A stretch of DNA of 59,846 nucleotides, taken from a virus. Its lineage: Duplodnaviria; Caudoviricetes. How positions within the stretch are numbered: position 1 is the first letter of the stretch; every line of letters begins with the position of its first letter. Below the pieces are notes generated by a model. It was given only the letters and a program-made list of their open reading frames with translations, was not told the origin of the DNA and ran no database searches. Both the position numbers and the translations under genes were made by a program. Of this stretch, positions 424 to 57,845 are shown in pieces. The stretch is from the IMG/VR virus record IMGVR_UViG_3300030099_005700, positions 1-59,846 of that record. One strand, given 5' to 3'.

Positions 424-452
424 TTGACAAAACCCCCTTTATTTGGTATAAT
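424..452 (+). promoter_or_regulatory. Early sigma70 promoter
   Basis: TTGACA(424)-17 bp-TATAAT(447) with an extended TG; GTG start at 462. Confidence 0.9.
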
Positions 453-461
453 GTATATACA

Positions 462-1214
462 GTGAGAGAAGAACCAAAAACAAAAACAAAAGCACTGGCC
501 AACGAGCCAGTCCAACAAGCGTTGGATTCCGGTAAAACGTTTGACAGCTTGCCATCCCCTGCGAGACACGTTGAGCAAGCGCATCTCGTGGGAGTGAGCC
601 CCCACCTCCCCAAACGCCCCAAGCAGGGTGGGAGGCGCGGCAAGCTCACCGCCCAGCAAAAGTGGCAACGCTGGGCCAGTATGCTGAGTAGGCCTGCTGC
701 TGCTAGGGCATACTACGCCAAGCACCACAAGGATATTGACTCCATCCGGCTCCATCCCAATGAGGTCTGGGCTAACACTCCTGTTGAGAAAGAGGAAGTG
801 TCAGACCCCCTCGAAATATACGAACACGCCATGAGAGTGTGGCGCGCCGCGTGTCGTAGGCGGCGCAAGCTGATTGCTCACGGGAGCGCGCTGATGGCGA
901 AGCGCGGTGGTTTCAAACGTTTTATGGAACACTGCGAAAAGCATCCAGATATTTATGAGCTTGCAGATGGCAAGCTTGCAGCCGTGCGACCCGCCCCCAA
1001 GCAACCGGAGGAGCCAGAGGAGGCCCGCGTCGCGCCGCCTAAGCTGGATGGCCGGACAGGATTCAGGAAGCAGGCTTCCAAGAAGACCAAGGCCCTCACA
1101 GATATCCAGAAGCGCATGGCAGAGGAGAAGCGCAAGGCGGAGGCCGCGAAGGAGGAGAAGCCGCGCCCTGTGATGAAGCACCACACCACACCTAACCCTT
1201 GGCTCAACCGTTAA
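462..1214 (+). CDS. Hypothetical basic early protein
   Basis: 250-aa ORF directly after a consensus promoter; its stop lies in the palindrome. Confidence 0.7.
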   Translation: MREEPKTKTKALANEPVQQALDSGKTFDSLPSPARHVEQAHLVGVSPHLPKRPKQGGRRGKLTAQQKWQRWASMLSRPAAARAYYAKHHKDIDSIRLHPNEVWANTPVEKEEVSDPLEIYEHAMRVWRAACRRRRKLIAHGSALMAKRGGFKRFMEHCEKHPDIYELADGKLAAVRPAPKQPEEPEEARVAPPKLDGRTGFRKQASKKTKALTDIQKRMAEEKRKAEAAKEEKPRPVMKHHTTPNPWLNR

Positions 1215-11925: not shown

Positions 11926-12226
11926 GGCGTTGCGTAAAGTCCTGATACGGTACAGCCGTAAGGATTGGGACTGGATATGCAATTATGGTCCTCAGACAAA
12001 ATGGTGTAAGCTGGGGCTCCTTATCGCTAAACGCGAACTAGGGATGACATGGCGGGAAGCTGGGGCCTGTTTCGGTTTGAAACCGGAACAGGCTTCCAGA
12101 GTCGCTCGTAAGTTTGAGGATAAGGTTTTTGAGGAACCCGCTCTTTTCGATATGATGACTAATCTATCGTTTCGAGTACTTGAATCCTTGGGCCAGACTT
12201 GCGGATCTCATCAAGAGCGATCCTAA
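11903..12226 (+). CDS. Putative HTH DNA-binding protein
   Basis: RELGMTWREAGACFGLKPEQASRVARK resembles a helix-turn-helix. Confidence 0.55.
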   Translation: MTVADKTEALRKVLIRYSRKDWDWICNYGPQTKWCKLGLLIAKRELGMTWREAGACFGLKPEQASRVARKFEDKVFEEPALFDMMTNLSFRVLESLGQTCGSHQERS

Positions 12227-15200
12227 GTCTTTGCTTGCCAACCACGCCATCAGGGGTAAGACCTATTACTTGTTCTATAAATGGTGTTGGTAACACATCT
12301 CTTTCTCTGCGCCCCCTGACAATATAAGACTGGCGTCTCTTGCCCATGCCTAAGGCCTTCTCACTCATAACTCTTCTCGCTTGTTGAGGCGTTAGGCCCA
12401 ACCCTTGTGCCCCTATGTAAGAACTGTAGATGCGCTGATCTACTTCGCGCCTTACCTTGATCCACTTGCGGATAGACCTGCGAATCTGCCCTTCGGACAA
12501 CTGCCCTTTCGATTTGAGTATATTGCGTAGGGAAGAAGCACGGTTTCGTTCGTCCCGCGCTCTTTGCAGGTACCGGAGATAGTGGGTCTCAGGATCATAC
12601 TTGTATGGCTTCACGGGGGTTATCTCTCCTATCAGAAGGGCCTTTGCTGATTTAGCAGGGTCAGGAGATGCTCCTGCATACAGAGCCTGATAAGCAGCTT
12701 GTGCTAATTTAGTAGGTGTCCTAGGGGCGTAAGCCTCTGAAAAGACGTAACCTAACTTCTTAGCAAAGCCCAAAGCTCCCTCTCCTTTCTCCGCTATTGG
12801 GCCTCCTGTGTCAGACCTCACATTCCTAGACACATCTACTACAGAACTAAGGAATATATTTTCATCCATGAATGTCTGCATCAAGCTCCCGAATGCTTCT
12901 TCAAATCCTCTTTCGGAATTACCTCTAAATGCATGCTCAGAGAAACGGAGCAGAGGGTCAACTCCGATAGCGAAAGGATTAACAAAAGTCATATCCCATG
13001 ACCTAAGCTCTTTACTCTTTATGCCTAGTAGGCTCTGAGGGTTATACCAGAAAGTATTAAATCTCTTATACTCTGGTGAAGACCCCCGTAGAAGTTCGTC
13101 TTCTTCTTCACCAACCCCTGCCAAGTGAGCGAGTAATGTTGGGAGACCGGCGCTCACTCCAAGGATAACAGTGGACACTCCACTTATGCGCCTTACGCCT
13201 CTTAACCTTACGACAGGGTTGGTGCTCTTCATCTCTTGTCTGGCTAACTTGTAAGTGTTTTCCAGTATGCGGAAGACTTCGGTTTTGAACCGCAAGAACG
13301 GGGTAACAACAGAAGCGTACTCACTCTTACCTATCTTCTCAACTAGGTGGTAAGCATCTGCATACGACTGTGATGTACGCCGAACTTTTTGGGCTGCAAG
13401 ATATTTAAGGTCGTAATCGGAGAGGCTCCGGTATCCTGCTGGCGCGTTCGCATCAATAGAATCTGTGTTGTTATCTATGTCCCACTGCTTTGCTTTCAAC
13501 AGGTTCTCTTTCTCCAGCTCGTAGTACCCGATCTTGTAGAAGGCATCAACCGATTGTGAAAGAGCCTGAAGTCTTTCCATGACAGGCTTTATTACTTTGT
13601 CTGAAAGCCCCTTCGATTTCTCAACGATCTTATTTAAAGATTCAATTTCTTTGAGAACAGAAGATACATTCTTGGGTTTCTTGAGCAGATCTCTAATCAA
13701 AGATGAATAAAGATCCTGCCCGATGACATTCAACCCCGTCAGCTCTGCATAATATTCATCAAAAGCCTTGGGGTCTTTTATTGCGCGACCGATAACTGTG
13801 GACCTCGTAGCTATTCTAGCCATAGACACAGGGCCAAAACCTTGGGCTGGCGCGAAGAAGAACAAGTTACCTAAAACGTTTCTCATGTAGAACGTTACAG
13901 ACCCTAACGTTTTAGCAGTAAGAGCGGCCCCAGTTAAGAGCCTAAGGCCTTCACCAAACGACGCTAGTTTCTGTTTAGAGGTAGACAAGTTAGACTCTGC
14001 AATATCTGGCGAGTACATACGTTTCAGATCATCAAACATATCCTCATGGATATAGTAATTATATGTTTGGTCGTATGTTGACTCCAGCTCTGTGGTCGCC
14101 TGCACTTTATCCCCATAAACGTATGCTTCCCCCGTCCGCATATTGACGTAGGACTCTGGATCTAGTTCAGGGCGGTTGGTTAGCTGTTCGTGGGTAAATA
14201 CGAATGCATCTTCATCGGTGTCACTTTTCGGAGCCCCTAGCTCTGCTAGGTTATTGAAGTAGGCCTGTTTAGCTGTCATCTCTGCAACAACAGTAAGTGA
14301 GCGTGCGAGATTATTTATTCCTTCTTCAGGGCCATAGACGCCCATTAGTTTCTGTAACGGGGGAGGGACTTGTTCCCTTCGTCTCAGGTTATTCAGCAAA
14401 GACCTGCCTACTCCTTTTGGTAGCCGGTAAGCTTCGCCTTTTGTCCGTTTCTCCATAGCCTTCAGATAGGTGGACATCATAGCGTGGATCGGATCCCGAC
14501 CTGTGTCTGAAGCCTGCTCTAGTTCTTGCTTTGATTTTTCCAACGACTCTTCTACAGTCATTGACTCACCTTCATTTCTCGCCTTCGCACGGATCTTCTT
14601 AGCTTGGGTCCTGATCCACTGCCGACGCATATACTCGTAGGCTTCAGTGAACGCTTCCGTTGTCTTATCGGACATAATCCTATCTCTGAACCCTTCCTCT
14701 TCAAAGACCCTGTACTGTCGTGTGAGATAAATGCCCACTTGGCTTTCTACTTTGGCCATTACTTTCCCTTCAAGGCCGAAGGTTTTTTTCATGACCAGAC
14801 TAAAGGCGTCGAGTAACAGGCGTAGCTCTAGTATAGATTCAGCTAGATCGGGAGCTATTTGTCGGATGTTTTCCTGTGCGGCATTTATATCTTTGCGTAC
14901 TTGTTCTTGTAGCCTCTCGCGTTCTTTACGCATAGGATCGACCACTAACTCTCTGTATTTAGCTTTGATATTTTCTCTAGTGAACTCAGTAGCTTCTGCG
15001 TCACCTGCCTCTACCTTTGCTTTTAAGTCTTTCCTCCATGACCAGTAAGACTCTCTAAGCTCTTGCCTGAAATCAGGGTCTACTATTACATTTTCGCTAC
15101 TACCCGTTGCTTTTGAAATAAGAGCCTCGTCTATTTGAGGATACCTCTCTCGTATTTTTTGGAAGGCAGCGATCTTAGCATTGCTAAGTTTTTCAGAAGC

Positions 15201-18200
15201 ATTGAGAAAGGCCTTCTCTTTCTTTTTTAACTCCGAAACTCTGGGGTCTGAATCCCCATATTTCATAGCCTTTAGCCCTTCGTAACCTTTATACTTCCCT
15301 TTAGAAAAGACCCCCACGGGCAGCTCTAAGGTGTCGAACATACCTTGGAACCGCGCAATAATGTCTTCAGGAGTGGTATTCTCATCGATATCATTGAGAG
15401 ACGCGTCAAACCGACGGGTTATAACATCAAATCCAGCATTAGGATCACGCGGGTCAAAGGGCATGTGTCTGGCGCGAGCGGCACCCCCATTGGCCAAGAA
15501 CCTAAGCTCATGGGCCATACGGTTAATCATAACCGCCAACTCTGGATTATCTTTTTTGAGGTTATACCTAGCGGACATCCTACGGAATACCCCTGCAATG
15601 TACCGGAGCATTATGCGGAGAGTGCTTGGGCTAGATTCGTAAAATGCAATATCTTCTTGGGTAGTGTACCCACGAGTCACCCTCTTCAAGACACTGAGTA
15701 ACTTCTCACCCATGACTTGCCGCATAGTCTCTAAATCGTTGTCAGCAATACCTTGTTTAAGGGCAGCGCGTAACTCAGGGTTGCGGGTATATTCGTCTAT
15801 AAACTCGTTGAATTCTGTTTCACTAAACGTGTCAATCAGAGTATCCAGTTCCGCAAGGGGGATTGCTTTGAACTCTGCTATGTGCCCCAGCTCTTCAGCA
15901 ATAATGGAATCCATGATGCCTTTAAGGTGCAACTCGTTCTCGACTATTGCACTCTTAGCAAACAAAGTTCTCACTAGATTCTCCCGAATCACATAAATGA
16001 CGGGGACTCTCTCCCCGTCTTTCTCAACTACCACAGAAGCGAATGCTTCGTCAGGCCTACCTGAAAAAATATCTGGGGCATCGGCGGCAGTATCTACCAT
16101 CGACACTGCAACAGAAGGAGGGATACTACTCAAAGACTCTTCTACAAGTGCTTGGATTTCGGCCTCCTGTTCAGGAGTCATTTCCCCAGCTTCAATCCCG
16201 CCTTCAGAGCCAAAAGGACTGAACCTCGCCCCAGAGGGGGAAGTCCGCATAAAGTCGAGTTTCAATACATTTCGATAGCGGGACCGAGCCCTATCAATCC
16301 TATTATCCATGTCACCGAAGGGCGTGGTCTGCCCTTCAGCGTTCCCAAGATTAACAAAGTCTATCAAATTATCAAAAGCCTCGCGGAATTTGGCGTCCGC
16401 TCTGACCCCAAACAAATCCAAAATAGCATCGGCTATGCGGCGGAACAGGCTACGTTGTTTATCTTTAGGCTGTGTGCTTTTAAGCGTTCTTTGAAAAGTG
16501 GCTGACGAGAAGAACGTCGCCACAAACTCGTCGAGACTCCCCATAGCATGGTCAAACTCCAGATTTTCTGAAGCTTCGTTTCGGGACTGGGAAGAGATCT
16601 TGAACAAACCTTCTAGTCTCTTCTTAGCCCCGCGTTGTTTGGGGGTAAGCTCAGATTCTGGCTTGGCTAGAAGATCTACAGTGAAGGCATGTATATATTC
16701 GTGGAGAAGGACGGACTCTACCCCTTGACCATAAAACCCCGACAAGTTTATGCTGACCATCTGGGAACCATCTTCAAAGGTGGTGTGGTTCCCCGCAGAC
16801 CCATCTGGCACATCATATATAGAGAACTTGACGCGAGAAAGAAGCTCTGGGTTTCGTAGCAAAAGTTCAGCTACCAACCGATGCTGCCTGTTACGACTGG
16901 ACTTCGCAATCTTCTGCAAAGCGTCGATTACTGAAGAAGGGTCACCAGATTTTAAGCCCAATCTACTTACCACACTTTGGTTTTTGCGGCGGTAGTAATT
17001 GAACTTCTTCCCAAGGAAAATTGAGGGGGCATGGTTTACACCCAGCTTCGCGAGAACTTCTCTAGCGATGTCGTTAGTAAGTTCTGCCTTTCGGGGGCTG
17101 AACATAGGAACATACGATCTAAATATGTTTATGACATTCCAGTTTTGTTTCATCAAGACCTCTTCGGAGGCCACAGCCTTATTTAGACGCGCTACAAAAT
17201 CTGATGTTCTGTGGTTGACTCTAGCGACATTAAGGAGATGCTCAAAAATACGAGCGGGTTGGGTTTGTTCAAGAACATGGGGAGGGGCAGAATCGCCTTC
17301 AACGGCTACGACGACGCGCTTCAGCGCATCAGTAAAAAGGTTTTGTTCCCTAATAGTGTTGGGTCCGCGTGCCCTTAAGTAGTTCCTTACGTCTACCCGC
17401 ACAGACTCCACCGCATTCTCCATGTCAGCGGCATCGAGCATTGTGGCCTCCCGCCAAAGAGACTGGACTTCTTCTCCAGTAAGGTTCTCAACACCGAATT
17501 CTTGAATTTCAGGAATCGGCAGATCCTCTTTGTCTATATCTTGTTCAGCAGCTAGGTCTTGCTGATCAGCCTCAAATTCAGTTACAGTTTGTGAGGCGTC
17601 GAAAGAAATATTGGTGACATCTGGGAACAGGAGTGCCCGCCGACTAATAAGCCTCTGCCGAGCCCTATTACCTGCATCGCGAATTATAGCGTAAAGATCA
17701 ATTGTATCACCCTTAAGGTATTTTATATTGTCTCGTGCTTCTTTAGCAAAATATTGACGAATAGTTATTTCTGCCCAGTTATCAGCAAGAGTTCTAGAAG
17801 TAGGGGTGGTTGTAATTATAGGCCTGTCTTTACTATCAGGAAACCCATATTTCAGTAAGAAGGCCGCTTTGCTTTCGAGGCTGTTCGCGTCCTCTACGAC
17901 CAACCCGTCCTCCATCCGTCGGACTGGCACAGGGTTAGCAAACCTAGGAGGGGTATATGACACTATCTCTTCGAGATGCATATGCCCAGCTAGCGTTTCC
18001 GTTTCTATTTCAGGGTCAAGCTCAAGGACATCAAATGACTTCTCCCCTTCTGCAACTGTCCTCGTTCTAAGAGAACGGGAACCATAACCGGGGGCTAGCA
18101 TCGCTTTATGGAGGATTGTGTAAACTTCAGCTAAAGCCATAGCTCTAGCTGTTGTGTACTCCTCAAAGGAGACACCAGCTCCTTCACGGAAGGCCTTTAC

Positions 18201-21200
18201 ATTTAGTATCCGGCTTATCATGGAGCCAAGAGGGCTAGTCGTACTGCCAGTAACTATGCCCGTATACTCTTTCGCAAACAAAGCATTCAGGGGGGCGGTG
18301 GGTCCTCCTCTTTCTTTCCTGTCTCGCTCTGCGTCGAAAACTACCAATTGGTCCCCAACAGGCTCTCCTTTATTATTTGTCGGGCCCAATTGAGCATTAA
18401 GATAACTTGGGACAGCGTTCCGCTCAAAAGCCGCGTTTATCTTTAGGTGGCCCAACAAATATTTTGAAAGGTCAGACTGGAGGGTGTCTTTGTAAACTAT
18501 GGACCTTTTAGTAAATTCAAAACCCGCTACAGGGGCCTCGACATCTACAGCAAAAAATCTTTTTGTTTTCGTAAGGTCATCGAACTTTTCAACAACAGCA
18601 ATAGCTGGGTTGCCGATATACTCCCCATCTTTTATGTAAATATCGGGAACCCTTACCAGAACTTTCTCTTTTCTGAGTAATGCAGCAACGCTCGCAGGGT
18701 GGTTATTAAACACTCCAAAAGCTGTGTCGTGATGCCACTTAGTGTACCTTTTATCGTCTTTAGATTCCCCAGACAAATTTTTAGCCTGAGTATCAGTTAG
18801 GCCAACTGTTTTAGCTGCTTCAACTGCTTTAGCAATCGTGGGTACAGGGTAGCGCCTTTTAATACGGTTGTTAATCGTTAAGGTAAGAGCCTCTCTTGTC
18901 CACTTTCTAGTCTTTGGGCCAGCGTCGCCAAGTAATGTGGCGATTTTGAATGTAGCATCAGGGAACCCATAGGGGGTTTTTTTCGTTATATCCACTGGGA
19001 TGCCCGACCGGACATGTAAGTGTATAAGTTCGCGTATCCTGTCGCGCAAAACTCTGTCTGAGAATGAGTCAGGGCTTTCGGTGGCTTCTTCGGTGACTTC
19101 CGCGTCAATGCTATCGGGGTCATTATCAGCGGTGTCTTCGGGGGTATTAAACTCTTCGCGATATATTTTTTGAGACTCTTTAAATATGTCGTTTAGATGG
19201 GGCTCTAGCTCTTCTCTCGTGTAATCATTTTTGAAATCGGACAATAGCTGTTTCGTCCACGCGTCGAAGTTAGCTATTTTTCGGGCTATATATGCCGCTC
19301 CAATAATAGCTAAATCCGAAAGGGTCGTTGGGTCGAGGCCTAGATTAAAACGAGAACGTTTTTCGCGTAGGTTTCGTCTGGCTTGTTCAGCCTTCTTTTC
19401 CATTCTTTGGGCGAAAGCTTCTACCTTAGATATTTCTGAAGTCTCGTCTGTTTCTACAACAACATCGGCCTCCTCACGGGCTTGGGCAATGTCTTCAGCA
19501 ACAGCCTTCAAGGCTTCCACGGCGTCTTCAGAATCCAAACCTGCTGCATTTGCGTTGTCAGAAAACTCGTTCAGGTCATCCTCTGTTATTACAAGCTCTT
19601 CTTCTGCTTCAGCGGCGGCTACTCCCTCCTCTTGCAGCTCCTGCTCTTGTTTTACTTTAGGGGACAGTTCAAAAGTAAGAGCCTGAATAACGCCCTCATG
19701 GGCTTCGGTAACCCACTCGCTAAACGGCTTATCGGTGACGTTTTTTATTTTCGTGGCTTTGCCACCAAATATTAAACCGACAGGGTCTCCTTGGGGCCCT
19801 ACTGTCTTGGATTTTTTAACGGTAACCCCCAAGGCCTTTAATTTTTTGTTAAGCGTTGCTAGAGTAAGCTCCCCTTTAGGGGGGTTTTTGAGGAGCTTAT
19901 CCTTTTGCTTTTGCAAAGCCTCTACAATCAAGCTGTGTTCTGCTTCTGAGACCTCTGTCTTAGAAGATGAAGCAATGAAGGGGGTAGTGGCATATTTTAC
20001 TTTATTCTCTAAAAGACGTTGATACAGGTCGGCTGGGAGTTCTGATTTAAGAGCCGCTAGTTGGTTGGTGTTCAGAGAGGGCATAGACCCCTCTGCCCCT
20101 GCTACTTCAGGTGACTGGATCCAAAAGCCCCCCACGGTCCTTTGGAGAGTCGTTGGTTTTCGCACCATCCTCTTACCTCTTTGCGTGGTAAACCCAAATC
20201 GTCCGTAGAACTCTTTTAGTTTTTCTTTAGATGGCCCACCCTTAAACGCTTGTACATCAAGGGTAATGCGAGTGCCAGTTGCGTCTGCGATTTCAGCAAG
20301 GCGGGCCATAATCGCAGTGCCCGCCCCTTGCTGTTGTAGCGTAGGCGCAACTTTGATAACATCGAGGTGGACTGTTTTTCCGCTAGTCTTTCGGAGGTCT
20401 ATCAACTCTGACGCTGTGGGGGCCGTGGCACGTTGACGTTCTCCCCCCGTTTGTAGCCTCAATTGAGGCAGTTGTTTAGTCTCTGCCTCATACATTTCCA
20501 TGAAACCCTCAGATCCTGACTTCTGAGTTTCGGGAGTACGGGATTCAGGTGCTGCGTCTTCATCGTCTTTCCTCTCTCGTGCTTCTGCTTCTGCTGCCTC
20601 TTCTCTTTCCAGTGCTTCTACTGTAATTAGGTCTGAAGGATCTAGGTCTGGTCTAGTAAGCACTTGCGCAGAAAGATCTTTGAAGTAGTCCTCTATTTCG
20701 ATAGGGGTCGGAACCCTAACCTGAGGCACAGGTATTATCTGACCTCCTTCACGGCCAGAGGTTCTGATTATTTCTTCCTCAGCAGCGGCTCCATGTTGTT
20801 CGGGAGTCGCTTTAGATACGGCGTCTACTATTTGATCCGCTGCGTCTTTCTTGATTATGTCCCAAGCCTCGTTGATCTCCTGCATTACTTGCTCCGCTTC
20901 AGGAGCAGGATTCACATCAGGGTGATTTGTACGTACTAAATTCCGGTAAGCAGCTTGTATCTGAGCAAAAGTAGCGCCCACAGCCACGCCTAAACGGGCA
21001 TAGGCTTCAACAACATTTTGGGGTTTTTCTCTTTCCTCAACAGGGGTGATCTCAGATGGTTCGGTTTGCTCTTGGGTTTGCTCTTGGGTTTGCGCGGGTT
21101 CTCGTGGGCCACTTCGGTAAAAGGGGTCGGTGGCTCTTTCTGGGTCGATGTTTGCCCTTTCCCTTTCGTCCATGATGTCCTCAATAGCATCTGCTGTCGC

Positions 21201-23723
21201 AGGACTGTCTAGATCTCTTAATTTCTGGCCAGCTTCTCTGGCGCGTTGTGTATTTATCTCCTCCGCTATTCGTGTGGCCACCTCTCTTTTAGCCGCCCTC
21301 TCACTAGTAACAGCCGACCCCCGTGCGGCACGGCCCAATGTGTCTCTAAAGAGAGGCATGCCCAAGCCAAAGGCTCCCCCATAAGCAGCAGCAATATAAG
21401 CGCCCGTGACTCGATCTGTGAAGGGCATGTCTTCTCCAGTGAACCCCGTCTGAATGAAGCTATTGATGAATTCATCCAGTCCTTCTTCTAAAGCCTCGTC
21501 AGCAAAATTTTTCCCGTAACGAAGCATCGCATTTGTAGGGACAAATTCTTTCCAAGATCTTTTAATCCCCTCTGCGGATATTTTTGCTAAAGCCGCGTCA
21601 TAGACATCATCGGGTAATTGCCCTAGTTTCTGGATACTAGATCTGTGAGCAACCGTGTTGGCGACAGTGCGTTTAAGCTGTTCCCTTACTTGGGAAGTAC
21701 TAGCGCGACCAATAATAAAATCTTCTACACCGCCCATTCCAATGGCGCGGAAACCTAAAACAAGACCCCCTGTAACAACAGACGCCATGAGCCCAGCCCC
21801 CAGAGCCTTCTGGTGTCTTTCTTCAGACGGCATATCATCAGGCAAAGCACTGTAAACAGAAGCGTAAGTCATGCCTCCACTGCGGGTCGCAGCAGGCACA
21901 AACATGGCGGGGTAAAGCGTAGAATTCTTGGCTACTACTTGATTGTACTTTTTGATGACATCCACCGCAGTGGCTTTCTCGAAAGCTTCTCTCGTGGCCT
22001 CATTGGCAAAACTTTTTTTCTTCTTACCAAAAGATACAATGAGGTCTTTCGCTACAAGACGTTCGGCAGCTTGCTCTGCGGTTTCTAGCGCACCCCCAAT
22101 CGTTTTTCTTTTCAAGGAACCTGCAAGAATACCTGTAGCTATTCCTTTGGTAGTAAGTTTTGCTCCGGTTTTAAGGCCAAGATAACCCGCTCCACCTACA
22201 CCAGTAGTTGTTGTTAAGGCTGCTGTAGCAGTAAGGTCAACGGCTACAGGGGCGATCATGGAGGAAAGAGTCGTAACCCAGCCTACCTTGTCCCCCATCA
22301 TGTTTGCTAACCGCGCCCGCGCAGCACGGTCCCTCTGATTTTTAATAAGTGTATCTTGGGCGAGTTTGTTTGGCTCGCCATCAAAACTTGTAGCGGCTAC
22401 CCCCAAAGCAGCCACTGTATCAGTAAAGGCGTCTGGCACAGACCTCAGGACCGACCCTACGAACTCATTCCTAAACTCATTGTAATCATTGTTCTCAAAA
22501 AACTCGTCAAAAATTTCGGACTCTTCTTTACCATCGAGCAAGCCTTGGGCGACTGCCTCATTCCATTTAGAAGACAGGTATGTCCTGTTTATGACTTCAT
22601 TAAAGTCATTGAACATAGCACCATTAAGCCTGTTGCGACGTCGTAGTCTTAGCTTCTCTTTTTGCGGACCAGAGTAATCTTTAATGGCTTCTTCGAACAA
22701 AGACTTCTTGGCAAGGAGATCGCCATGCATGACCATGTCGCCATAGCCGTAAGTCCGAACATTGTTTGAAAGATTGCCCTCATCAAAGCGAATAACTCCC
22801 GACGACATAGCCATTTCCCCGACCATGTAATCCACAGCGGCGAAGCGGTCTTTTAAAGGAATACGTGAGGTATCAGGAAACAAGTACTCAAGCTCTTCTA
22901 CTACGTCCGCACGAAGTTCTTCGTTCAAAGACACATTGACCCGATCATCAGGAACGCCGAGCCTCTGTGCATAACGATGCATCGCACCTGTCAAGGATTC
23001 TGTGTCTTGGTCACTTCCAAGTGCAGTGTTTATCGCAAGAATAGCGTCTTCATAATGGGCACGTTTGTGTAAGGGAACCCCGCTATCCTCAAAGGGGGTC
23101 ATCGCTTGTTGTACCCCCCGTATGTCACGAGCATTAAGGAACCCCGCATCTACACTTTGCTTGTAAGCTTCGTAAGGGGTAAGACCATCAGCAGCAGGAC
23201 CACTCTTTAAATAATAACCACCATCAGGCCTAGCAACGCGGACAAACGGAGACCCTCCATCAGAGCGGATCTTATCTACAGCATCCTCATAATATTTATC
23301 GACCATAGCCGAAGCTTCTCCAAAAAGAGCTTCTTCTTGAGCCAGATAGTTTGGATCGGCGTCCCCCTTATTTTTTATTTTTATAAAAGCGTTATATGCC
23401 CTGATTGGATCCCCATCATCAGAACGGGGGTCTATGACATTCGCTCTAGATACAGCCTGAGCTTTTTCTTCATAAGAAGGGGAGTAATCCCTACTAAAGG
23501 CCTCATTTATCTGATCTGCCGTTAGCCCACTACCCCCCTCATCAGTAGGGGTTGCCAAAGCTTGCCCCAAGTTCCGGTCAATTATCCCCGCTATTTCATC
23601 ACTATATTTCCCATCTTTGAAATAAGATTCTCGTATGTAATCCGCGTGGGCGATTCTACGATCAACGGGGTCATCTAGGTCACTAGTGAGTGACCAATCA
23701 TCGAATTTTACAAGCTCAGACAC
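12159..23723 (-). CDS. Giant (3854 aa) polyvalent internal virion protein with J-domain, GNAT and zincin domains
   Basis: Uninterrupted ORF. J-domain AYRNLVRTNHPDVN; GNAT QQQGAGT...LKEFYGRFGF; zincin LLHEYIH...LDEFVA; hydrophobic N-terminal segments; last gene of the internal-protein cluster. Confidence 0.85.
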   Translation of the reverse strand: MSELVKFDDWSLTSDLDDPVDRRIAHADYIRESYFKDGKYSDEIAGIIDRNLGQALATPTDEGGSGLTADQINEAFSRDYSPSYEEKAQAVSRANVIDPRSDDGDPIRAYNAFIKIKNKGDADPNYLAQEEALFGEASAMVDKYYEDAVDKIRSDGGSPFVRVARPDGGYYLKSGPAADGLTPYEAYKQSVDAGFLNARDIRGVQQAMTPFEDSGVPLHKRAHYEDAILAINTALGSDQDTESLTGAMHRYAQRLGVPDDRVNVSLNEELRADVVEELEYLFPDTSRIPLKDRFAAVDYMVGEMAMSSGVIRFDEGNLSNNVRTYGYGDMVMHGDLLAKKSLFEEAIKDYSGPQKEKLRLRRRNRLNGAMFNDFNEVINRTYLSSKWNEAVAQGLLDGKEESEIFDEFFENNDYNEFRNEFVGSVLRSVPDAFTDTVAALGVAATSFDGEPNKLAQDTLIKNQRDRAARARLANMMGDKVGWVTTLSSMIAPVAVDLTATAALTTTTGVGGAGYLGLKTGAKLTTKGIATGILAGSLKRKTIGGALETAEQAAERLVAKDLIVSFGKKKKSFANEATREAFEKATAVDVIKKYNQVVAKNSTLYPAMFVPAATRSGGMTYASVYSALPDDMPSEERHQKALGAGLMASVVTGGLVLGFRAIGMGGVEDFIIGRASTSQVREQLKRTVANTVAHRSSIQKLGQLPDDVYDAALAKISAEGIKRSWKEFVPTNAMLRYGKNFADEALEEGLDEFINSFIQTGFTGEDMPFTDRVTGAYIAAAYGGAFGLGMPLFRDTLGRAARGSAVTSERAAKREVATRIAEEINTQRAREAGQKLRDLDSPATADAIEDIMDERERANIDPERATDPFYRSGPREPAQTQEQTQEQTEPSEITPVEEREKPQNVVEAYARLGVAVGATFAQIQAAYRNLVRTNHPDVNPAPEAEQVMQEINEAWDIIKKDAADQIVDAVSKATPEQHGAAAEEEIIRTSGREGGQIIPVPQVRVPTPIEIEDYFKDLSAQVLTRPDLDPSDLITVEALEREEAAEAEARERKDDEDAAPESRTPETQKSGSEGFMEMYEAETKQLPQLRLQTGGERQRATAPTASELIDLRKTSGKTVHLDVIKVAPTLQQQGAGTAIMARLAEIADATGTRITLDVQAFKGGPSKEKLKEFYGRFGFTTQRGKRMVRKPTTLQRTVGGFWIQSPEVAGAEGSMPSLNTNQLAALKSELPADLYQRLLENKVKYATTPFIASSSKTEVSEAEHSLIVEALQKQKDKLLKNPPKGELTLATLNKKLKALGVTVKKSKTVGPQGDPVGLIFGGKATKIKNVTDKPFSEWVTEAHEGVIQALTFELSPKVKQEQELQEEGVAAAEAEEELVITEDDLNEFSDNANAAGLDSEDAVEALKAVAEDIAQAREEADVVVETDETSEISKVEAFAQRMEKKAEQARRNLREKRSRFNLGLDPTTLSDLAIIGAAYIARKIANFDAWTKQLLSDFKNDYTREELEPHLNDIFKESQKIYREEFNTPEDTADNDPDSIDAEVTEEATESPDSFSDRVLRDRIRELIHLHVRSGIPVDITKKTPYGFPDATFKIATLLGDAGPKTRKWTREALTLTINNRIKRRYPVPTIAKAVEAAKTVGLTDTQAKNLSGESKDDKRYTKWHHDTAFGVFNNHPASVAALLRKEKVLVRVPDIYIKDGEYIGNPAIAVVEKFDDLTKTKRFFAVDVEAPVAGFEFTKRSIVYKDTLQSDLSKYLLGHLKINAAFERNAVPSYLNAQLGPTNNKGEPVGDQLVVFDAERDRKERGGPTAPLNALFAKEYTGIVTGSTTSPLGSMISRILNVKAFREGAGVSFEEYTTARAMALAEVYTILHKAMLAPGYGSRSLRTRTVAEGEKSFDVLELDPEIETETLAGHMHLEEIVSYTPPRFANPVPVRRMEDGLVVEDANSLESKAAFLLKYGFPDSKDRPIITTTPTSRTLADNWAEITIRQYFAKEARDNIKYLKGDTIDLYAIIRDAGNRARQRLISRRALLFPDVTNISFDASQTVTEFEADQQDLAAEQDIDKEDLPIPEIQEFGVENLTGEEVQSLWREATMLDAADMENAVESVRVDVRNYLRARGPNTIREQNLFTDALKRVVVAVEGDSAPPHVLEQTQPARIFEHLLNVARVNHRTSDFVARLNKAVASEEVLMKQNWNVINIFRSYVPMFSPRKAELTNDIAREVLAKLGVNHAPSIFLGKKFNYYRRKNQSVVSRLGLKSGDPSSVIDALQKIAKSSRNRQHRLVAELLLRNPELLSRVKFSIYDVPDGSAGNHTTFEDGSQMVSINLSGFYGQGVESVLLHEYIHAFTVDLLAKPESELTPKQRGAKKRLEGLFKISSQSRNEASENLEFDHAMGSLDEFVATFFSSATFQRTLKSTQPKDKQRSLFRRIADAILDLFGVRADAKFREAFDNLIDFVNLGNAEGQTTPFGDMDNRIDRARSRYRNVLKLDFMRTSPSGARFSPFGSEGGIEAGEMTPEQEAEIQALVEESLSSIPPSVAVSMVDTAADAPDIFSGRPDEAFASVVVEKDGERVPVIYVIRENLVRTLFAKSAIVENELHLKGIMDSIIAEELGHIAEFKAIPLAELDTLIDTFSETEFNEFIDEYTRNPELRAALKQGIADNDLETMRQVMGEKLLSVLKRVTRGYTTQEDIAFYESSPSTLRIMLRYIAGVFRRMSARYNLKKDNPELAVMINRMAHELRFLANGGAARARHMPFDPRDPNAGFDVITRRFDASLNDIDENTTPEDIIARFQGMFDTLELPVGVFSKGKYKGYEGLKAMKYGDSDPRVSELKKKEKAFLNASEKLSNAKIAAFQKIRERYPQIDEALISKATGSSENVIVDPDFRQELRESYWSWRKDLKAKVEAGDAEATEFTRENIKAKYRELVVDPMRKERERLQEQVRKDINAAQENIRQIAPDLAESILELRLLLDAFSLVMKKTFGLEGKVMAKVESQVGIYLTRQYRVFEEEGFRDRIMSDKTTEAFTEAYEYMRRQWIRTQAKKIRAKARNEGESMTVEESLEKSKQELEQASDTGRDPIHAMMSTYLKAMEKRTKGEAYRLPKGVGRSLLNNLRRREQVPPPLQKLMGVYGPEEGINNLARSLTVVAEMTAKQAYFNNLAELGAPKSDTDEDAFVFTHEQLTNRPELDPESYVNMRTGEAYVYGDKVQATTELESTYDQTYNYYIHEDMFDDLKRMYSPDIAESNLSTSKQKLASFGEGLRLLTGAALTAKTLGSVTFYMRNVLGNLFFFAPAQGFGPVSMARIATRSTVIGRAIKDPKAFDEYYAELTGLNVIGQDLYSSLIRDLLKKPKNVSSVLKEIESLNKIVEKSKGLSDKVIKPVMERLQALSQSVDAFYKIGYYELEKENLLKAKQWDIDNNTDSIDANAPAGYRSLSDYDLKYLAAQKVRRTSQSYADAYHLVEKIGKSEYASVVTPFLRFKTEVFRILENTYKLARQEMKSTNPVVRLRGVRRISGVSTVILGVSAGLPTLLAHLAGVGEEEDELLRGSSPEYKRFNTFWYNPQSLLGIKSKELRSWDMTFVNPFAIGVDPLLRFSEHAFRGNSERGFEEAFGSLMQTFMDENIFLSSVVDVSRNVRSDTGGPIAEKGEGALGFAKKLGYVFSEAYAPRTPTKLAQAAYQALYAGASPDPAKSAKALLIGEITPVKPYKYDPETHYLRYLQRARDERNRASSLRNILKSKGQLSEGQIRRSIRKWIKVRREVDQRIYSSYIGAQGLGLTPQQARRVMSEKALGMGKRRQSYIVRGRRERDVLPTPFIEQVIGLTPDGVVGKQRLRIALDEIRKSGPRIQVLETID

Positions 23724-26067: not shown

Positions 26068-26361
26068 TTACCAAAGGTGTTTACAAGCCCAATAGCGGGC
26101 AGTTGTTTTATCTTTTGCAGTTTTGCAGTTATGCCTCGCTCTAAAATTAGCGCGGCGTTTAGGGTTTTTGTGTTTTCGGAAATCGCTGTAATCACGATGT
26201 CCGTACGAAACCTTTTTAATCTTGTCGCCCTGTTTGCCTAATACGACGAATTTTTTCTTCGAGCCTTTAGGCGCTCTTTTAGGCTTATTAAACCCAGCAT
26301 AGGTCTCTCCCATATACTGAATTCTACCAGAAGGCAGGCGCTTAAATCTTTTTGCAGCCAC
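26068..26361 (-). CDS. Small basic conserved phage protein
   Basis: GFNKPKR...KKFVVL...RRANFRARHNC...ARYWAC pattern, recalled from aquatic phage proteins. Confidence 0.8.
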   Translation of the reverse strand: MAAKRFKRLPSGRIQYMGETYAGFNKPKRAPKGSKKKFVVLGKQGDKIKKVSYGHRDYSDFRKHKNPKRRANFRARHNCKTAKDKTTARYWACKHLW

Positions 26362-29196: not shown

Positions 29197-29436
29197 ATGT
29201 TCCAGCAACGCCATGTGGTAGAGAACCCTTCGGTCCTGCGAAGAGAAGACTTGTTTGAAAACAAGTTTGTTTACCGTGTAGTCATTGCTAAAGGGACATA
29301 CTACCGCGTTATACCCTCTACATGGAAAGAAGTGTGCTTCATGCGCCTTTTAGAAAAAGGGCTGACTTACGAAGTCCCTTACGACGGTGACGGTCTTTTG
29401 ATTGCTAAAAAAGCAATACCCTCAGATGAACACTGA
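29197..29436 (+). CDS. Hypothetical protein
   Basis: 79-aa ORF. Confidence 0.65.
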   Translation: MFQQRHVVENPSVLRREDLFENKFVYRVVIAKGTYYRVIPSTWKEVCFMRLLEKGLTYEVPYDGDGLLIAKKAIPSDEH

Positions 29437-29758
29437 ACAACTCCTCCTGATACACGAAGAAACGTGTAAAGCCGCGCACGAGATCATGCGCCAGAAGAAC
29501 TCTGACTACACAGGTGGGTCCGAAGCCACTGATGCCCTTGAGAACTTCAAGGCATCTCGATCCTTGGGACTGCACCCTGCAACCGGACTCCTGCTTCGTG
29601 TACAGGATAAGCTGATGAGGATTCGCTCATTCGTGGCTGATGGAAAACTGCGGGTAGTAAACGAATCTGTAGAGGACGCATGCGATGACATTGTCAATTA
29701 CGCCATCCTCTGCAAAGCCCTCTTGAGAGAGGAAGCAGAAAACAAAGATAGAGAATGA
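29426..29758 (+). CDS. All-alpha NTP-pyrophosphatase-like / nucleotide-modification-associated protein (DUF1599-like)
   Basis: KNSDY, ENF, RVQDKLMR and ESVEDACDDIVNYA motifs. Confidence 0.75.
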   Translation: MNTEQLLLIHEETCKAAHEIMRQKNSDYTGGSEATDALENFKASRSLGLHPATGLLLRVQDKLMRIRSFVADGKLRVVNESVEDACDDIVNYAILCKALLREEAENKDRE

Positions 29759-50111: not shown

Positions 50112-50470
50112 TCCATCTCCCTGAACATTTTCAAGGCGAACTGATTAGGGTTGAGGTCGGCATAGTCTTCGTCAGCCATCTTTTCGGCAATCTGCTCCAT
50201 GAGCATAGCGTGGTCTTCGGACTCTGGGTCAAACTCTACCCCGAAGATAACCATGAAAAGCTCTTCGGCTTTTTGCATCAAGTCCTCTGGAGCTTCTTCT
50301 GGAGCTTCTTCTGGAGCTTCTTCTGGAGCTTCTTCTGGAGCTTCTTCTGGAGCTTCTTCTGGAGCTTCTTCTGGAGCTTCTTCTGGAGCTTCTTCTGGAG
50401 GCGCGGAAGCGGCGGATTCGACGGCATCGATAAACATCTGGGCGTCGTCCATATCTTTTTTATCTACCAT
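50108..50470 (-). CDS. Acidic protein with EEAP repeats
   Basis: 120 aa immediately downstream of the capsid gene. Confidence 0.75.
   Translation of the reverse strand: MVDKKDMDDAQMFIDAVESAASAPPEEAPEEAPEEAPEEAPEEAPEEAPEEAPEEAPEEAPEDLMQKAEELFMVIFGVEFDPESEDHAMLMEQIAEKMADEDYADLNPNQFALKMFREME
50287..50399. repeat. 12-bp coding tandem repeat (~9 copies, CTGGAGCTTCTT)
   Basis: Exact copies encoding PEEA. Confidence 0.95.
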
Positions 50471-50544: not shown

Positions 50545-51909
50545 CTATGCGGCGGCGGTATTAGTGTCGCGCTTGAAGATGACAACGTATCCGAAGCTGG
50601 TCTTAATTGGCTTCGATGCGCTGGCCATGATTCCCCGGAAGAAACCAATTGTGCCATCAGGATTGTAAGTGGCGTCGGGGATGTTAGTCCACTTGAAGTC
50701 GCCCTTATAATTGACGGGGTCGAAGGTGATTCCGTTGCCACCAGTGAGCGGTGCAGGGATCAGGGACTCCATGACGTTGTCAACAAGGACATAAGCGGCT
50801 TCAAACTCAGCACTTTCGTAATCTGCGTTCGGGACAACAACTCCACCAGATACAGTATAAGGATCGACTCTGACGAGAGTGTTTGCCTCTCCTCCGCGAC
50901 TCTTATAACGAGTGGTGAGATCGTCGACCAAGTGGTAGAAACCCCTGAAGCTTTTCTCAACACCAAGAGGTGCAATCAGTTCGCCAACTCGTGCATTGTT
51001 GTAACGCACATCATCGCGGAACTCAGCCTCAGTCTGAAGCTGGTAAGAAGCCTCAGAAGAAAGGACTACCGAGAAGATTGGGCGACCGTTCTCACGACCG
51101 TAGGCGTTGGTACCTGCACCAGCGCGAACAAGCTTAAAGTAAATCTTGTCCATGATGGCGTTGGAGATGTTAGCATCAGGCTCCAGTTCTCCAGTTCCGT
51201 CTCCTCCGGGCTCCGGAGGATCAAGGTCACCAGTCTTTACGGTAGACCCAGCTTGTGCCAAACCATCGGTAGTGTCTTCTACGAACGACTGCTTGTCCTC
51301 TACAGAAGAGATAAAGGTCGTGCTAGCAGACTTACAAAGAACGCAGTTATCAGCAAGGCGGTCATACTCGTCGCGGTAGCGATTTTCCCAGCTATGACGG
51401 ACAGACTCCTTGAGGAGGTCCATGATAGCGCGGAGCTGATCGGTACGATGAGCAGCATAACGAAGATCTTCAACATTGATCTTCGGGGACTCGACCGTAG
51501 CCTTTTTCAGGCTGTATTTCTTGAGTACCTGAGAGAAGTCAATTTTAGAAGTGCCTTCGTCACCAGTGTTACGAACATCCTCAATCTGACCATCGGTGAA
51601 GCCAGTCCTGCTGGAGGCTACAGCCGAAAGATTGATAGTATTCCAATTAAGTCCCAAAACGGGGGTCGCGTTCAACGCGCCACTCTTAAGTGGAAGTGCC
51701 CTATCGTAAACGAGGGTGTTGAGTTGATAGCCCATCCCGTCAGGGAAAGTGCTTTGTTTAACAAGGTCAATCCACGGGGAAGTGTGGAGAGTTGACTTGT
51801 GAATATCGTTACCGATGCGATTAGCTTCCTGAGTCAGGATAACGTTAATTGCATTGGCGTCATTTGCAAAAGTGCCGTCTGGAAGAGCGGCATTGGTTGA
51901 AACTCCCAT
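50545..51909 (-). CDS. Major capsid protein
   Basis: About 454 aa from MGVSTN; downstream of portal and scaffold; followed by a strong terminator. Confidence 0.8.
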   Translation of the reverse strand: MGVSTNAALPDGTFANDANAINVILTQEANRIGNDIHKSTLHTSPWIDLVKQSTFPDGMGYQLNTLVYDRALPLKSGALNATPVLGLNWNTINLSAVASSRTGFTDGQIEDVRNTGDEGTSKIDFSQVLKKYSLKKATVESPKINVEDLRYAAHRTDQLRAIMDLLKESVRHSWENRYRDEYDRLADNCVLCKSASTTFISSVEDKQSFVEDTTDGLAQAGSTVKTGDLDPPEPGGDGTGELEPDANISNAIMDKIYFKLVRAGAGTNAYGRENGRPIFSVVLSSEASYQLQTEAEFRDDVRYNNARVGELIAPLGVEKSFRGFYHLVDDLTTRYKSRGGEANTLVRVDPYTVSGGVVVPNADYESAEFEAAYVLVDNVMESLIPAPLTGGNGITFDPVNYKGDFKWTNIPDATYNPDGTIGFFRGIMASASKPIKTSFGYVVIFKRDTNTAAA

Positions 51910-51987
51910 TGTATTAGATAGTAAAGTTAAGGAAAAAAAGACCCTTTCCCCCATTGTGGGGCCAAAGAATCAAACGAAGATGTAGGT

Positions 51988-52105
51988 GAATCCCGCTTCC
52001 TAGAACTATTTACATGGCTAGAGCAACCAGCAGTATTCGGGTAAGAGAGGCAAAGCTCTGGAGATGACGCGTAGAACTATTTAAGGCTAGAGCAACCTGT
52101 CATCT
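51988..52105 (-). ncRNA. Tandem structured cis-regulatory RNA candidate in the capsid 5' leader
   Basis: Two copies of GGTTGCTCTAGCC-n-TAAATAGTTCTA, each closed by a different stem. Confidence 0.6.
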
Positions 52106-52116
52106 GTTATTTTTGG

Positions 52117-52145
52117 ATTATTACGTAAATCCTTAATTATGTCAA
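52117..52145 (-). promoter_or_regulatory. Putative capsid promoter
   Basis: TTGACA-17-AATAAT just upstream of the tandem element. Confidence 0.6.
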
Positions 52146-52195
52146 CCAGAGATTTATTCTGCTCTAGCTGCCTTAAGGGTGTATAACTCAAACAC

Positions 52196-52282
52196 ATGAT
52201 AGATCAAGACCCAACATTGGTGGCTATGCTGATAGTTTCAATAATTTTCCTAGTAGCCATAGCGAAAAGTCTGGACATGTGA
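52196..52282 (+). CDS. Putative 28-aa membrane peptide
   Basis: MIDQDPTLVAMLIVSIIFLVAIAKSLDM, after a TG-TATAAC element. Confidence 0.4.
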   Translation: MIDQDPTLVAMLIVSIIFLVAIAKSLDM

Positions 52283-52308
52283 TTTCGCTCTAGATAAAAG
52301 GCGGAGTT

Positions 52309-52518
52309 ATGAAACAAACATTATTCGTAATCGCGGCGGGATGCACCTTAGCAGTGTCTTCCTGCTCTACGATGGACTTGGGCGGGTCAGTACCTCTCCC
52401 ATTCACTGAGCCATCAACTTCAGCAAAGTTGGACCTTAATCTTCGACCGATGCCCCCGCGATTTTGTATTGGGGTGGACCTCGTTCCGACAGAAGAAGAA
52501 ACCCCTGAATCAGAATAA
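52309..52518 (+). CDS. Small lipoprotein
   Basis: MKQTLFVIAAGCTLAVSSC signal/lipobox; GGAG upstream. Confidence 0.7.
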   Translation: MKQTLFVIAAGCTLAVSSCSTMDLGGSVPLPFTEPSTSAKLDLNLRPMPPRFCIGVDLVPTEEETPESE

Positions 52519-52521
52519 GTC

Positions 52522-52593
52522 ATGGCCTACGGAAACCCAAAACCAAAACCCAAGCCTAAGCCAACAAAGCCCAAAACAAAGGGCGGCTACTAA
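52522..52593 (+). CDS. Putative 23-aa basic peptide
   Basis: MAYGNPKPKPKPKPTKPKTKGGY, 3 nt after the lipoprotein stop. Confidence 0.5.
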   Translation: MAYGNPKPKPKPKPTKPKTKGGY

Positions 52594-52615: not shown

Positions 52616-52653
52616 AAAAACCCGCTTCGTTGCTCATGCGAAGCGGGTTTTTT
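52616..52653. terminator. Bidirectional terminator
   Basis: AAAAACCCGCTTCG / CGAAGCGGGTTTTTT between convergent units. Confidence 0.85.
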
Positions 52654-52699: not shown

Positions 52700-52807
52700 T
52701 TATCCTAGACACGACGCTAGAGCCGAAAAAACAAAATATAAAGTTATAGTGATAACAGCCCCCCACACAAAGGCTAGAAAAACGTAGAAAGGCCTACGAT
52801 CTCGCAT
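52700..52807 (-). CDS. Putative 35-aa membrane peptide
   Basis: MRDRRPFYVFLAFVWGAVITITLYFVFSALASCLG, directly after the scaffold stop. Confidence 0.45.
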   Translation of the reverse strand: MRDRRPFYVFLAFVWGAVITITLYFVFSALASCLG

Positions 52808-57817: not shown

Positions 57818-57845
57818 ATGATACCTTTACCATGATTCCTGTCAA
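57818..57845 (-). promoter_or_regulatory. Putative head-operon promoter
   Basis: TTGACA-16-TATCAT, 10 nt before ATG 57807. Confidence 0.55.

Follow-up and report, generated by a model that had tools for sequence, protein, structure and literature searches.

IMGVR_UViG_3300030099_005700 is a near-complete virus record (99% complete, 59.8 kb) of an uncultured marine phage, and the whole record is called the window here. Its minus strand carries a capsid gene preceded by a promoter and a long leader, and two copies of a repeated motif lie within this leader (Table 1).

Table 1. Features of the capsid locus and other signals in the window
Feature	Positions	Strand	Detail or basis
Major capsid protein gene (as accepted from model matches)	50545..51909	(-)	454 aa counted from ATG 51909
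Sigma-70-like promoter TTGACA-17-AATAAT	52145-52117	(-)	11/12; predicted start near 52110
Copy A	52105-52062	(-)	closing stem 52105-52099 / 52068-52062; R1 42.7 bits
Copy A, first box	52097-52085	(-)	13-mer GGUUGCUCUAGCC
Copy A, second box	52083-52072	(-)	12-mer UAAAUAGUUCUA
Accessory hairpin P2	52059-52046	(-)	AGAG-CUUUGC-CUCU: stem 4 bp, loop CUNNGY
Copy B	52038-51988	(-)	closing stem 52038-52029 / 51997-51988; R1 51.2 bits
Copy B, first box	52028-52016	(-)	13-mer GGUUGCUCUAGCC, identical to copy A
Copy B, second box	52012-52001	(-)	12-mer UAAAUAGUUCUA, identical to copy A
Hairpin P4, then U7	P4 51971-51940; U7 51939-51933	(-)	G+C-rich, -15.1 kcal/mol
G-poor stretch before capsid ATG	51932-51910	(-)	sequence
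Strong intrinsic terminator directly 3' of capsid gene	50519-50475	(-)	16 pairs, 9 G-C, U-rich tail
Terminator-like hairpin 3' of upstream 402-aa gene	52783..52798	(-)	sequence
Near-consensus sigma-70-like promoter	57845-57807	(-)	-10 ends 10 nt before ATG of long ORF
Near-consensus sigma-70-like promoter	424-462	(+)	-10 ends 9 nt before GTG of long ORF

The capsid gene and its transcription unit

The capsid ORF has no match in Pfam or PHROGs, and a profile built from 22 capsid homologues matched no PDB sequence. An AlphaFold2 model of the protein, made on the alignment of the 22 homologues, is of low confidence (pLDDT 55.8). With this model as the query, Foldseek returned 49 matches at E≤0.001, and all of those listed are HK97-fold phage capsids. 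The best match is to phage N4 (9e99_A, E 1.5e-6, probability 1.00). Because the listed matches are all of this kind, the gene is accepted as the major capsid protein gene with a predicted HK97 fold despite the low pLDDT, and the capsid identity given in the initial annotation is borne out. The ORF list places the start at 51954, an ATG that sits in the loop of hairpin P4. Relatives begin the capsid ORF at the counterpart of 51909, and the start at 51954 is without a counterpart among them.

A tblastn search of 50,697 phage records with the capsid protein and the large terminase found no cultured relative, and blastn of the region gave no match either. In IMG/VR, the capsid protein as query retrieved 80 related loci. 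Capsid identity among the relatives that bear the motif is about 50-81%.

The promoter (11/12) and the leader of about 200 nt that had been proposed upstream of the capsid ATG are both found at this locus. Upstream of copy A, a promoter scoring at least 9/12 lies within 70 nt in 61 of 89 distinct relatives, compared to 11 of 386 random windows, and TTGACA is exact in 44. In 54 of the 61, 14-21 nt separate the end of the -10 hexamer from the first box, so the transcript is predicted to begin at the closing stem of copy A or a few nucleotides before it. Most other late genes with a visible promoter had been described as nearly leaderless, and this is upheld at two sites, 57845 (-) and 424 (+); the arrangement suggests that leaderless mRNAs occur in this phage-host system. 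A loose test finds Shine-Dalgarno pairing in few genes (10 of 56). Since two promoters appear leaderless and Shine-Dalgarno pairing is rare, the capsid leader of about 200 nt stands out. The promoters at 57845 and 52145 are the only two on the late strand of the window that reach 11/12.

Several other features lie upstream of the capsid promoter. GCTAGAGCA is found at 52168-52160 on the minus strand, just upstream of the -35 hexamer; over 9 nt, it is exactly complementary to the first box. A second CTAGAGC is found 126 nt further up, at 52293-52287. On the plus strand, a 69-aa ORF (52309-52518), possibly an inserted gene, separates the capsid promoter from the late gene upstream. At 52616-52653, a hairpin between A-runs and T-runs resembles a bidirectional terminator.

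The terminator directly after the capsid gene is the strongest on its strand in the window. Of 7 genomes, 5 keep a strong terminator in the corresponding place, the motif-negative genome G005 among them, and a crude finder detects one after the capsid gene in 21 of 60 relatives versus 9 of 183 coding windows. Relatives also have a hairpin and T-run just upstream of the capsid promoter. With terminators before and after it, the capsid gene is predicted to form its own transcription unit. Same-strand genes extend for ~38 kb downstream of the capsid gene and include an 11.5-kb ORF. A giant 3854-aa ORF (12159-23723, minus strand) contains a DnaJ J-domain (residues 907-962) and otherwise only a weak GNAT match, and no polymerase signal was found in it in Pfam, PHROGs or PDB. 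Its counterparts in relatives share 23-29% identity over about 900-1750 residues.

G005 is a complete relative that lacks the motif. It keeps the layout of terminator, promoter, leader, capsid gene and terminator, with a different 230-nt leader. The module therefore appears to be replaceable and one of several solutions for the capsid leader. A clade of loci (L066-L081; for example, L066:2745-2990) has, in the ~250 nt upstream of the capsid homologue, its own highly conserved leader of ~240 nt with a TTGACA promoter and a Shine-Dalgarno sequence. This leader has a predicted multi-hairpin fold of 54 pairs, 3 of which have double changes, and it contains GCUCUUAAA, which resembles a boxA sequence.

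The two copies and their occurrence in relatives

Copy A and copy B lie on the minus strand exactly where the initial annotation had placed them, with the letters it gave. Their cores are identical and their closing stems are unrelated in sequence, and both stems pair as it had claimed. Copy A forms 7 of 7 pairs, and copy B forms 9 of 10 with a single A-G mismatch. By itself, copy A folds at a minimum free energy of -11.5 kcal/mol (z -2.2). Copy B alone has a z of +0.5 when its folding is compared to shuffles, and the 226-nt leader in full shows no advantage over shuffles (z +0.78). Support for the fold therefore comes from the comparison between genomes rather than from thermodynamics.

Exact matches to either box are confined to the two copies within the window. 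A covariance model built from 92 copies of relatives, R1, was run over the window with its filters off. It scored the two copies at 51.2 and 42.7 bits, and the third-best match was 8.8 bits. The copies lie 80-190 nt from the capsid start codon and so do not overlap the ribosome-binding region.

Between the two copies, a stem of 4 bp with a loop of the P2 type is present in 28 of 69 distinct linkers, compared to 13 of 1380 shuffles. The P2 stems covary (UGGG/UCCA, AGAG/CUCU, AGGG/UCCU and GAGG/UCUC). A hairpin after copy B is common in relatives and mostly is not adjoined by a U-run; among the leaders listed, the adjacent U-tract is found in this genome only. Because the U-run is not conserved, P4 and U7 were rejected as a terminator or attenuator of general use, as was an independent small RNA ending at P4. 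The end of the leader is G-poor and rich in C, A and U, and the start region is unstructured.

The tandem pair is present in about 100 uncultured phage contigs. In 92 of 100 motif loci, a capsid homologue lies on the same strand 82-250 nt downstream, and the remaining 8 are loci in which the contig ends within 400 nt; there is no exception. The conservation upstream of homologous capsid genes that the initial annotation had put forward as a test is thus observed. Nearly all IMG/VR loci at 51-81% capsid protein identity have the tandem boxes 70-250 nt upstream of the capsid homologue. Among the 80 IMG/VR loci, the boxes are absent from clade L066-L081, where capsid identity is 39-40%, and from L029 and L039. 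R1 finds exactly two matches in each of four near-complete relatives. Over 86 sources, 127 of its 128 matches at E≤1 sit in the capsid leader, and 95 further loci gave 185 matches. Two pooled covariance model alignments together hold 139 distinct copies.

Scanning IMG/VR for the pattern yielded 95 stretches, and a scan of 185,579 species genomes found five short contigs bearing the motif (L082-L086). These are from four metagenome-assembled genomes (MAGs) of different phyla and are assigned to the inconsistent taxa Acidimicrobiaceae, Opitutae (two contigs), Blastopirellula and Verrucomicrobiales. They are probably phage contigs binned with bacteria, because each bears a capsid homologue.

The core boxes (13 nt and 8-12 nt) are almost invariant, though the capsid protein drops to about 50% identity, and no protein compared across these genomes is as conserved as the core. 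The 50-nt R1 matches span 24% to 55% G+C around this invariant core. Where the core does vary, the variants are often shared by both copies of one genome. In one clade (L041, L047 and L061), C6 is changed to U together with U9' to C in both copies, and in L050 and the L020 clade both copies have A10:U5' changed to G:C. The linkers between the copies range from 25 to 63 nt, and no helical phasing is seen.

Fold of the core and the strand that carries it

The closing stems are the clearest structural signal. The best duplexes of the true 5' and 3' flanks average -9.4 kcal/mol, compared to -4.0 kcal/mol for flanks swapped between copies. Duplexes at or below -6 kcal/mol are formed by 88% of the true pairs versus 18% of the swapped ones (Mann-Whitney p 1.6e-44, a value that overstates independence because the copies are related). 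Variable closing stems around an invariant core indicate a conserved structure, as judged from the aligned sequences.

In the alignment, C8-U9-A10 of the first box are shown to pair with U-A-G of the second box. Among 100 distinct rows, the A10:U5' position is A-U in 84, G-C in 10, C-G in 1, U-A in 1, unpaired in 1 and gapped in 3. These changes amount to ~7 independent events, an estimate made by eye from the loci and not from a tree, over rows that include related sequences. The neighboring pairs, C8-G and U9-A, are invariant. The covariation that the initial annotation had proposed to look for in homologous capsid leaders is thus present, both as compensatory changes at A10:U5' and as closing stems that differ and still pair.

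G1-G2-U3 can pair with G11-C12-C13. At U3:G11, the same rows have U-G in 94, C-G in 4 and U-A in 1, and G5:C10' is G-C in 99 and G-U in 1. C6 faces U9', and the two are switched jointly to U and C in the one clade. L055 has a divergent second copy, GAGUGCUCUACUC, in which pairs 1-13, 2-12 and 3-11 are kept through two double changes. The local hairpin GGUUG-CUC-UAGCC that had been described earlier is pairable in 99% and has no double changes. Its outer pairs (G1-C13, G2-C12 and U3-G11) stand, and its U4-A10 pair does not; it conflicts with A10:U5', since A10 covaries with the U of the second-box UAG and not with U4.

Two folds fit the core: a hairpin made irregular by U-U and C-U mismatches, and a small pseudoknot of the H type. 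In the pseudoknot version, stem 1 would consist of positions 1-3 and 11-13, and stem 2 of positions 5 and 8-10 with the second box. Loop 3, which corresponds to the spacing between the boxes, would be variable (2-9 nt) and A-rich; it is AAA in 54 and AAU in 34 of the 139 distinct copies. The closing stem abuts the second box directly in some copies, which favors the plain hairpin.

The fold is found on the mRNA-sense strand. In gapless closing stems read on this strand, G-U pairs number 46 and A-C pairs 14, and the G·U excess over A·C places the structure on the sense strand. Compared to its complement, the sense strand gives the better fold in 57 copies and the poorer one in 29 (Wilcoxon p 1e-4). 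The spacing varies continuously, between the boxes (2-9 nt) and between the copies (25-63 nt), which argues for an RNA fold and against a duplex-DNA operator. Taken from sequence comparison, the evidence argues for a fold of the mRNA-sense strand and not for a duplex-DNA operator or a template-strand hairpin promoter, so the refuting case named in the initial annotation, function only as a dsDNA operator, is disfavored.

The element could instead act in DNA, whether as a packaging site, an operator, or a promoter that is phage-specific or of the N4 hairpin type. In its favor, the box sequences are conserved, copy A is overlapped by a weak match to a promoter (ATGACA-16-AATAGT, 9/12), the capsid fold is nearest to that of N4, and the genome has a 3854-aa ORF. 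Against this stand the covarying closing stems with G-U favored on the sense strand, the continuous variation in box and copy spacing, the restriction of extra GCTCTAG sites to the window (in relatives, 0.097 per kb near the promoter versus 0.082 elsewhere) and the giant ORF, which matches DnaJ alone in PDB and Pfam. A DNA-level role is thus very improbable. The CTAGAGC/GCTCTAG sites at 52168-52160 and 52293-52287 were rejected as operators because they occur in the window and not in relatives. N4-type promoters are small template-strand hairpins recognised by a virion RNA polymerase; such a promoter was rejected because the sense strand is favored (46 versus 14) and the giant ORF is without a polymerase match.

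RNA libraries give some indication of the transcript. A contig from a ~95%-identical relative (record 14, 51658-52060) carries copy B, P2 and the capsid start in one piece. This agrees with a capsid mRNA that includes copy B, and DNA carry-over in the RNA library is possible. An identical contig from library X15 ends at 51986, and a contig from X16 (a ~95%-identical relative; X17 is apparently the same data) ends at 52060. Both ends lie 2 nt beyond a closing stem, that of copy B in X15 and that of copy A in X16. The coverage consists of contigs only, none of which spans copy A in any run or copy B in X15, and the uncovered part constitutes no finding. Because of this, and because the stops differ in place, they are a lead and not evidence for processing or for a downstream start. 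Elsewhere, RNA-library contigs carry CTG insertions after 50298 and 50382 within a 120-aa ORF on the minus strand. The summed depth over short CTTCTGGAG repeats in this region (50285-50400) is very high, probably because of cross-mapping of a simple repeat from other organisms.

Candidate roles of the leader element

No Rfam 15 family matches the window at the gathering score. At E≤10, region 51800-52400 gives a 14.5-bit snoRNA chance match alone, and 10 related loci gave no match. The Rfam search that had been suggested thus left the element without a family, in the window or in these relatives. The element appears to be a new family of cis-acting structured 5' leader RNA of phages. No such capsid-leader element is described in the portions of the literature available, and the 8,495 IMG/VR candidate RNAs of PMC10690425 may include the motif.

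The leader element is proposed to bind a trans-acting factor and to set the amount of capsid mRNA, with a probability of about 0.45. The repeats are a single folded RNA module in duplicate, placed where the capsid mRNA begins, and each would be a putative site to which a conserved factor binds; this factor could be a protein or the RNA polymerase as it transcribes. Occupancy of both sites would set the level of full-length, translatable capsid mRNA through protection or processing of the 5' end or through altered polymerase elongation. A specific trans-acting partner is inferred because the core is invariant within free stems and in surroundings of 24-55% G+C, and because variants are shared by both copies. 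The joint change of both copies could be due to gene conversion and not to a co-evolving partner. The proposed control would not operate through start-codon masking or a terminator switch; a classical translational operator and a terminator riboswitch are disfavored because the start codon is distant and no terminator is conserved. Of the interpretation in the initial annotation, the conserved, structured tandem RNA in a capsid leader behind a sigma-70-like promoter and outside Rfam stands, and the autoregulatory, protein-binding or riboswitch part stays a proposal, as no ligand, partner or expression platform was found.

The presence and absence of ORFs was compared between motif-positive genomes and G005. 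Three ORFs (26068-26361, 29197-29436 and 29402-29758, the last a DUF1599 protein) are present in 5 of 5 motif-positive genomes and missing from G005. The first, on the minus strand, encodes a 97-aa DUF5754 protein adjoining the large terminase. It is 79-93% identical in 4 of 5 relatives and is better conserved than the capsid or terminase proteins. A minus-strand 77-aa ORF (52290-52523) is present in 4 of 5 motif-positive genomes. This comparison to a single motif-negative genome yields small, weakly informative candidates and identifies no partner, because G005 is more divergent overall.

Known capsid and autogenous leaders resemble the element in part. In T7, gene 10 forms a unit by itself, with a strong promoter and a long leader before the gene and a strong terminator right behind, and the capsid gene here is arranged in the same way. 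It differs in having a host sigma-70-type promoter, no Shine-Dalgarno sequence and a tandem module that T7 lacks. UUAACUUUA is found at 51930-51922 (-) in the G-poor stretch before the capsid ATG, and similar UUAAC-rich runs occur in the leaders of many relatives. UUAACUUUA is identical to the translational enhancer 'epsilon' of T7 gene 10. Type III toxin-antitoxin (ToxI-like) systems have direct repeats that are identical over the whole unit, with the gene of an endoribonuclease toxin behind them; these were rejected because the closing stems here differ and the downstream gene has a predicted HK97 capsid fold. The T4 gene 32 leader pseudoknot and other autogenous translational operators, which PMC10690425 mentions, are also folded 5' leader RNAs of highly expressed phage genes, possibly bound by a phage protein. 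Such operators adjoin the ribosome-binding site and are single copy, whereas the module here is duplicated and lies 80-190 nt upstream.

A possible but unlikely alternative is that the leader is a put-like or nut-like nascent RNA that binds the elongating host RNA polymerase, alone or together with Nus-type factors. The polymerase would then resist pausing, Rho and intrinsic terminators, and capsid transcription would run into the late gene block. According to PMC9378689, putL of phage HK022 is a nascent RNA directly after its promoter whose stem-loops contain non-canonical pairs. A put RNA acts by binding the beta' zinc-binding domain of RNA polymerase, and it suppresses termination. The leader here has the same position and kind of pairing, and it is promoter-proximal with two stem-loop units of 44-51 nt. 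As described there, putL and putR are also cis-acting, lie downstream of a strong host-type promoter, occur twice per genome and involve no obvious phage protein. In the same source, the put sites lie in two early operons and are about 70 nt in all; here, both copies are in one late leader, and the module is larger, with two units and a linker of 25-63 nt. An invariant core across diverse phages would be accounted for by a partner common to all of them, such as RNA polymerase. Late-strand promoters at 11/12 are scarce (57845 and 52145), the strongest terminator of the strand comes right after the capsid gene with ~38 kb of same-strand genes beyond it, and the leader ends in a G-poor, C/A/U-rich stretch, all of which fit antitermination. 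However, the post-capsid terminator is kept in 5 of 7 genomes, including G005, and a terminator-sensitive polymerase fits this at least as well. No likeness to putL or putR in sequence or structure was found: over the HK022 genome with filters off, R1 finds nothing near the early promoters, and its best match (10.2 bits, E 0.7) is in the replication gene region. A conserved -10-like pause element is also absent. The would-be -11 position in the second box is variable, and a sigma-dependent pause element there was rejected for this reason.

About equally unlikely is that the module represents a new class of small functional RNA with its own activity, either a compact pseudoknot aptamer by which the phage would gate capsid synthesis on a host metabolite or signaling nucleotide, or a unit that cleaves itself or guides an RNase and would thereby trim the leader of the capsid mRNA and free abundant hairpin RNAs.

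Small ribozymes have a small conserved core with free closing helices and occur in intergenic positions of phages, and the module resembles them in these respects. Each unit could bring about cleavage, either unaided or through a host RNase, which would free small hairpin RNAs that might act in trans and give the capsid mRNA a new 5' end. As part of the most strongly promoted unit, it would yield an abundant product. No known ribozyme model in Rfam matches, though, and the core is only ~26 nt. Such processing is rather improbable.

Slightly less probable again is a tandem riboswitch, in which each copy would be a small pseudoknotted aptamer for a metabolite or signal and the pair would gate capsid synthesis. 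The pattern of conservation fits: the invariant nucleotides are set in a compact pseudoknot or an internal loop, the peripheral stems and loops vary in sequence and length, two similar domains are in tandem and loop 3 is A-rich (AAA 54 and AAU 34 of 139). Guanidine-II (mini-ykkC) RNAs likewise have two small tandem hairpins with invariant nucleotides and free stems. In those, the conserved nucleotides are in a tetraloop, whereas here they are in an internal helix or pseudoknot, and the module differs further in its capsid gene context and in lacking an expression platform and an Rfam match. The U-tract after P4 is found in the window only, so it does not provide a conserved platform, and the start region is G-poor, unstructured and far from the copies. 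No Rfam riboswitch matched even at E≤10, and a capsid gene would be an unusual target. A transcription-attenuator riboswitch was rejected because no conserved hairpin with an adjacent U-tract follows the copies in the leaders listed.

Binding of a trans-acting factor to the two copies remains the preferred reading. The RNA family itself is strongly supported by 139 distinct copies, compensatory changes and a strict link to a single gene, in a lineage without a cultured relative. Virions contain more of the major capsid protein than of any other protein, and the element therefore probably acts on the step that sets capsid supply. If the partner is RNA polymerase, RNA-only antitermination would extend beyond the lambdoid phage HK022. 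If the module binds a ligand or cuts itself, it would define a new class of riboswitch or ribozyme. Because the core is short and invariant, it also provides a simple sequence marker with which to detect this phage group in metagenomes from the sea.
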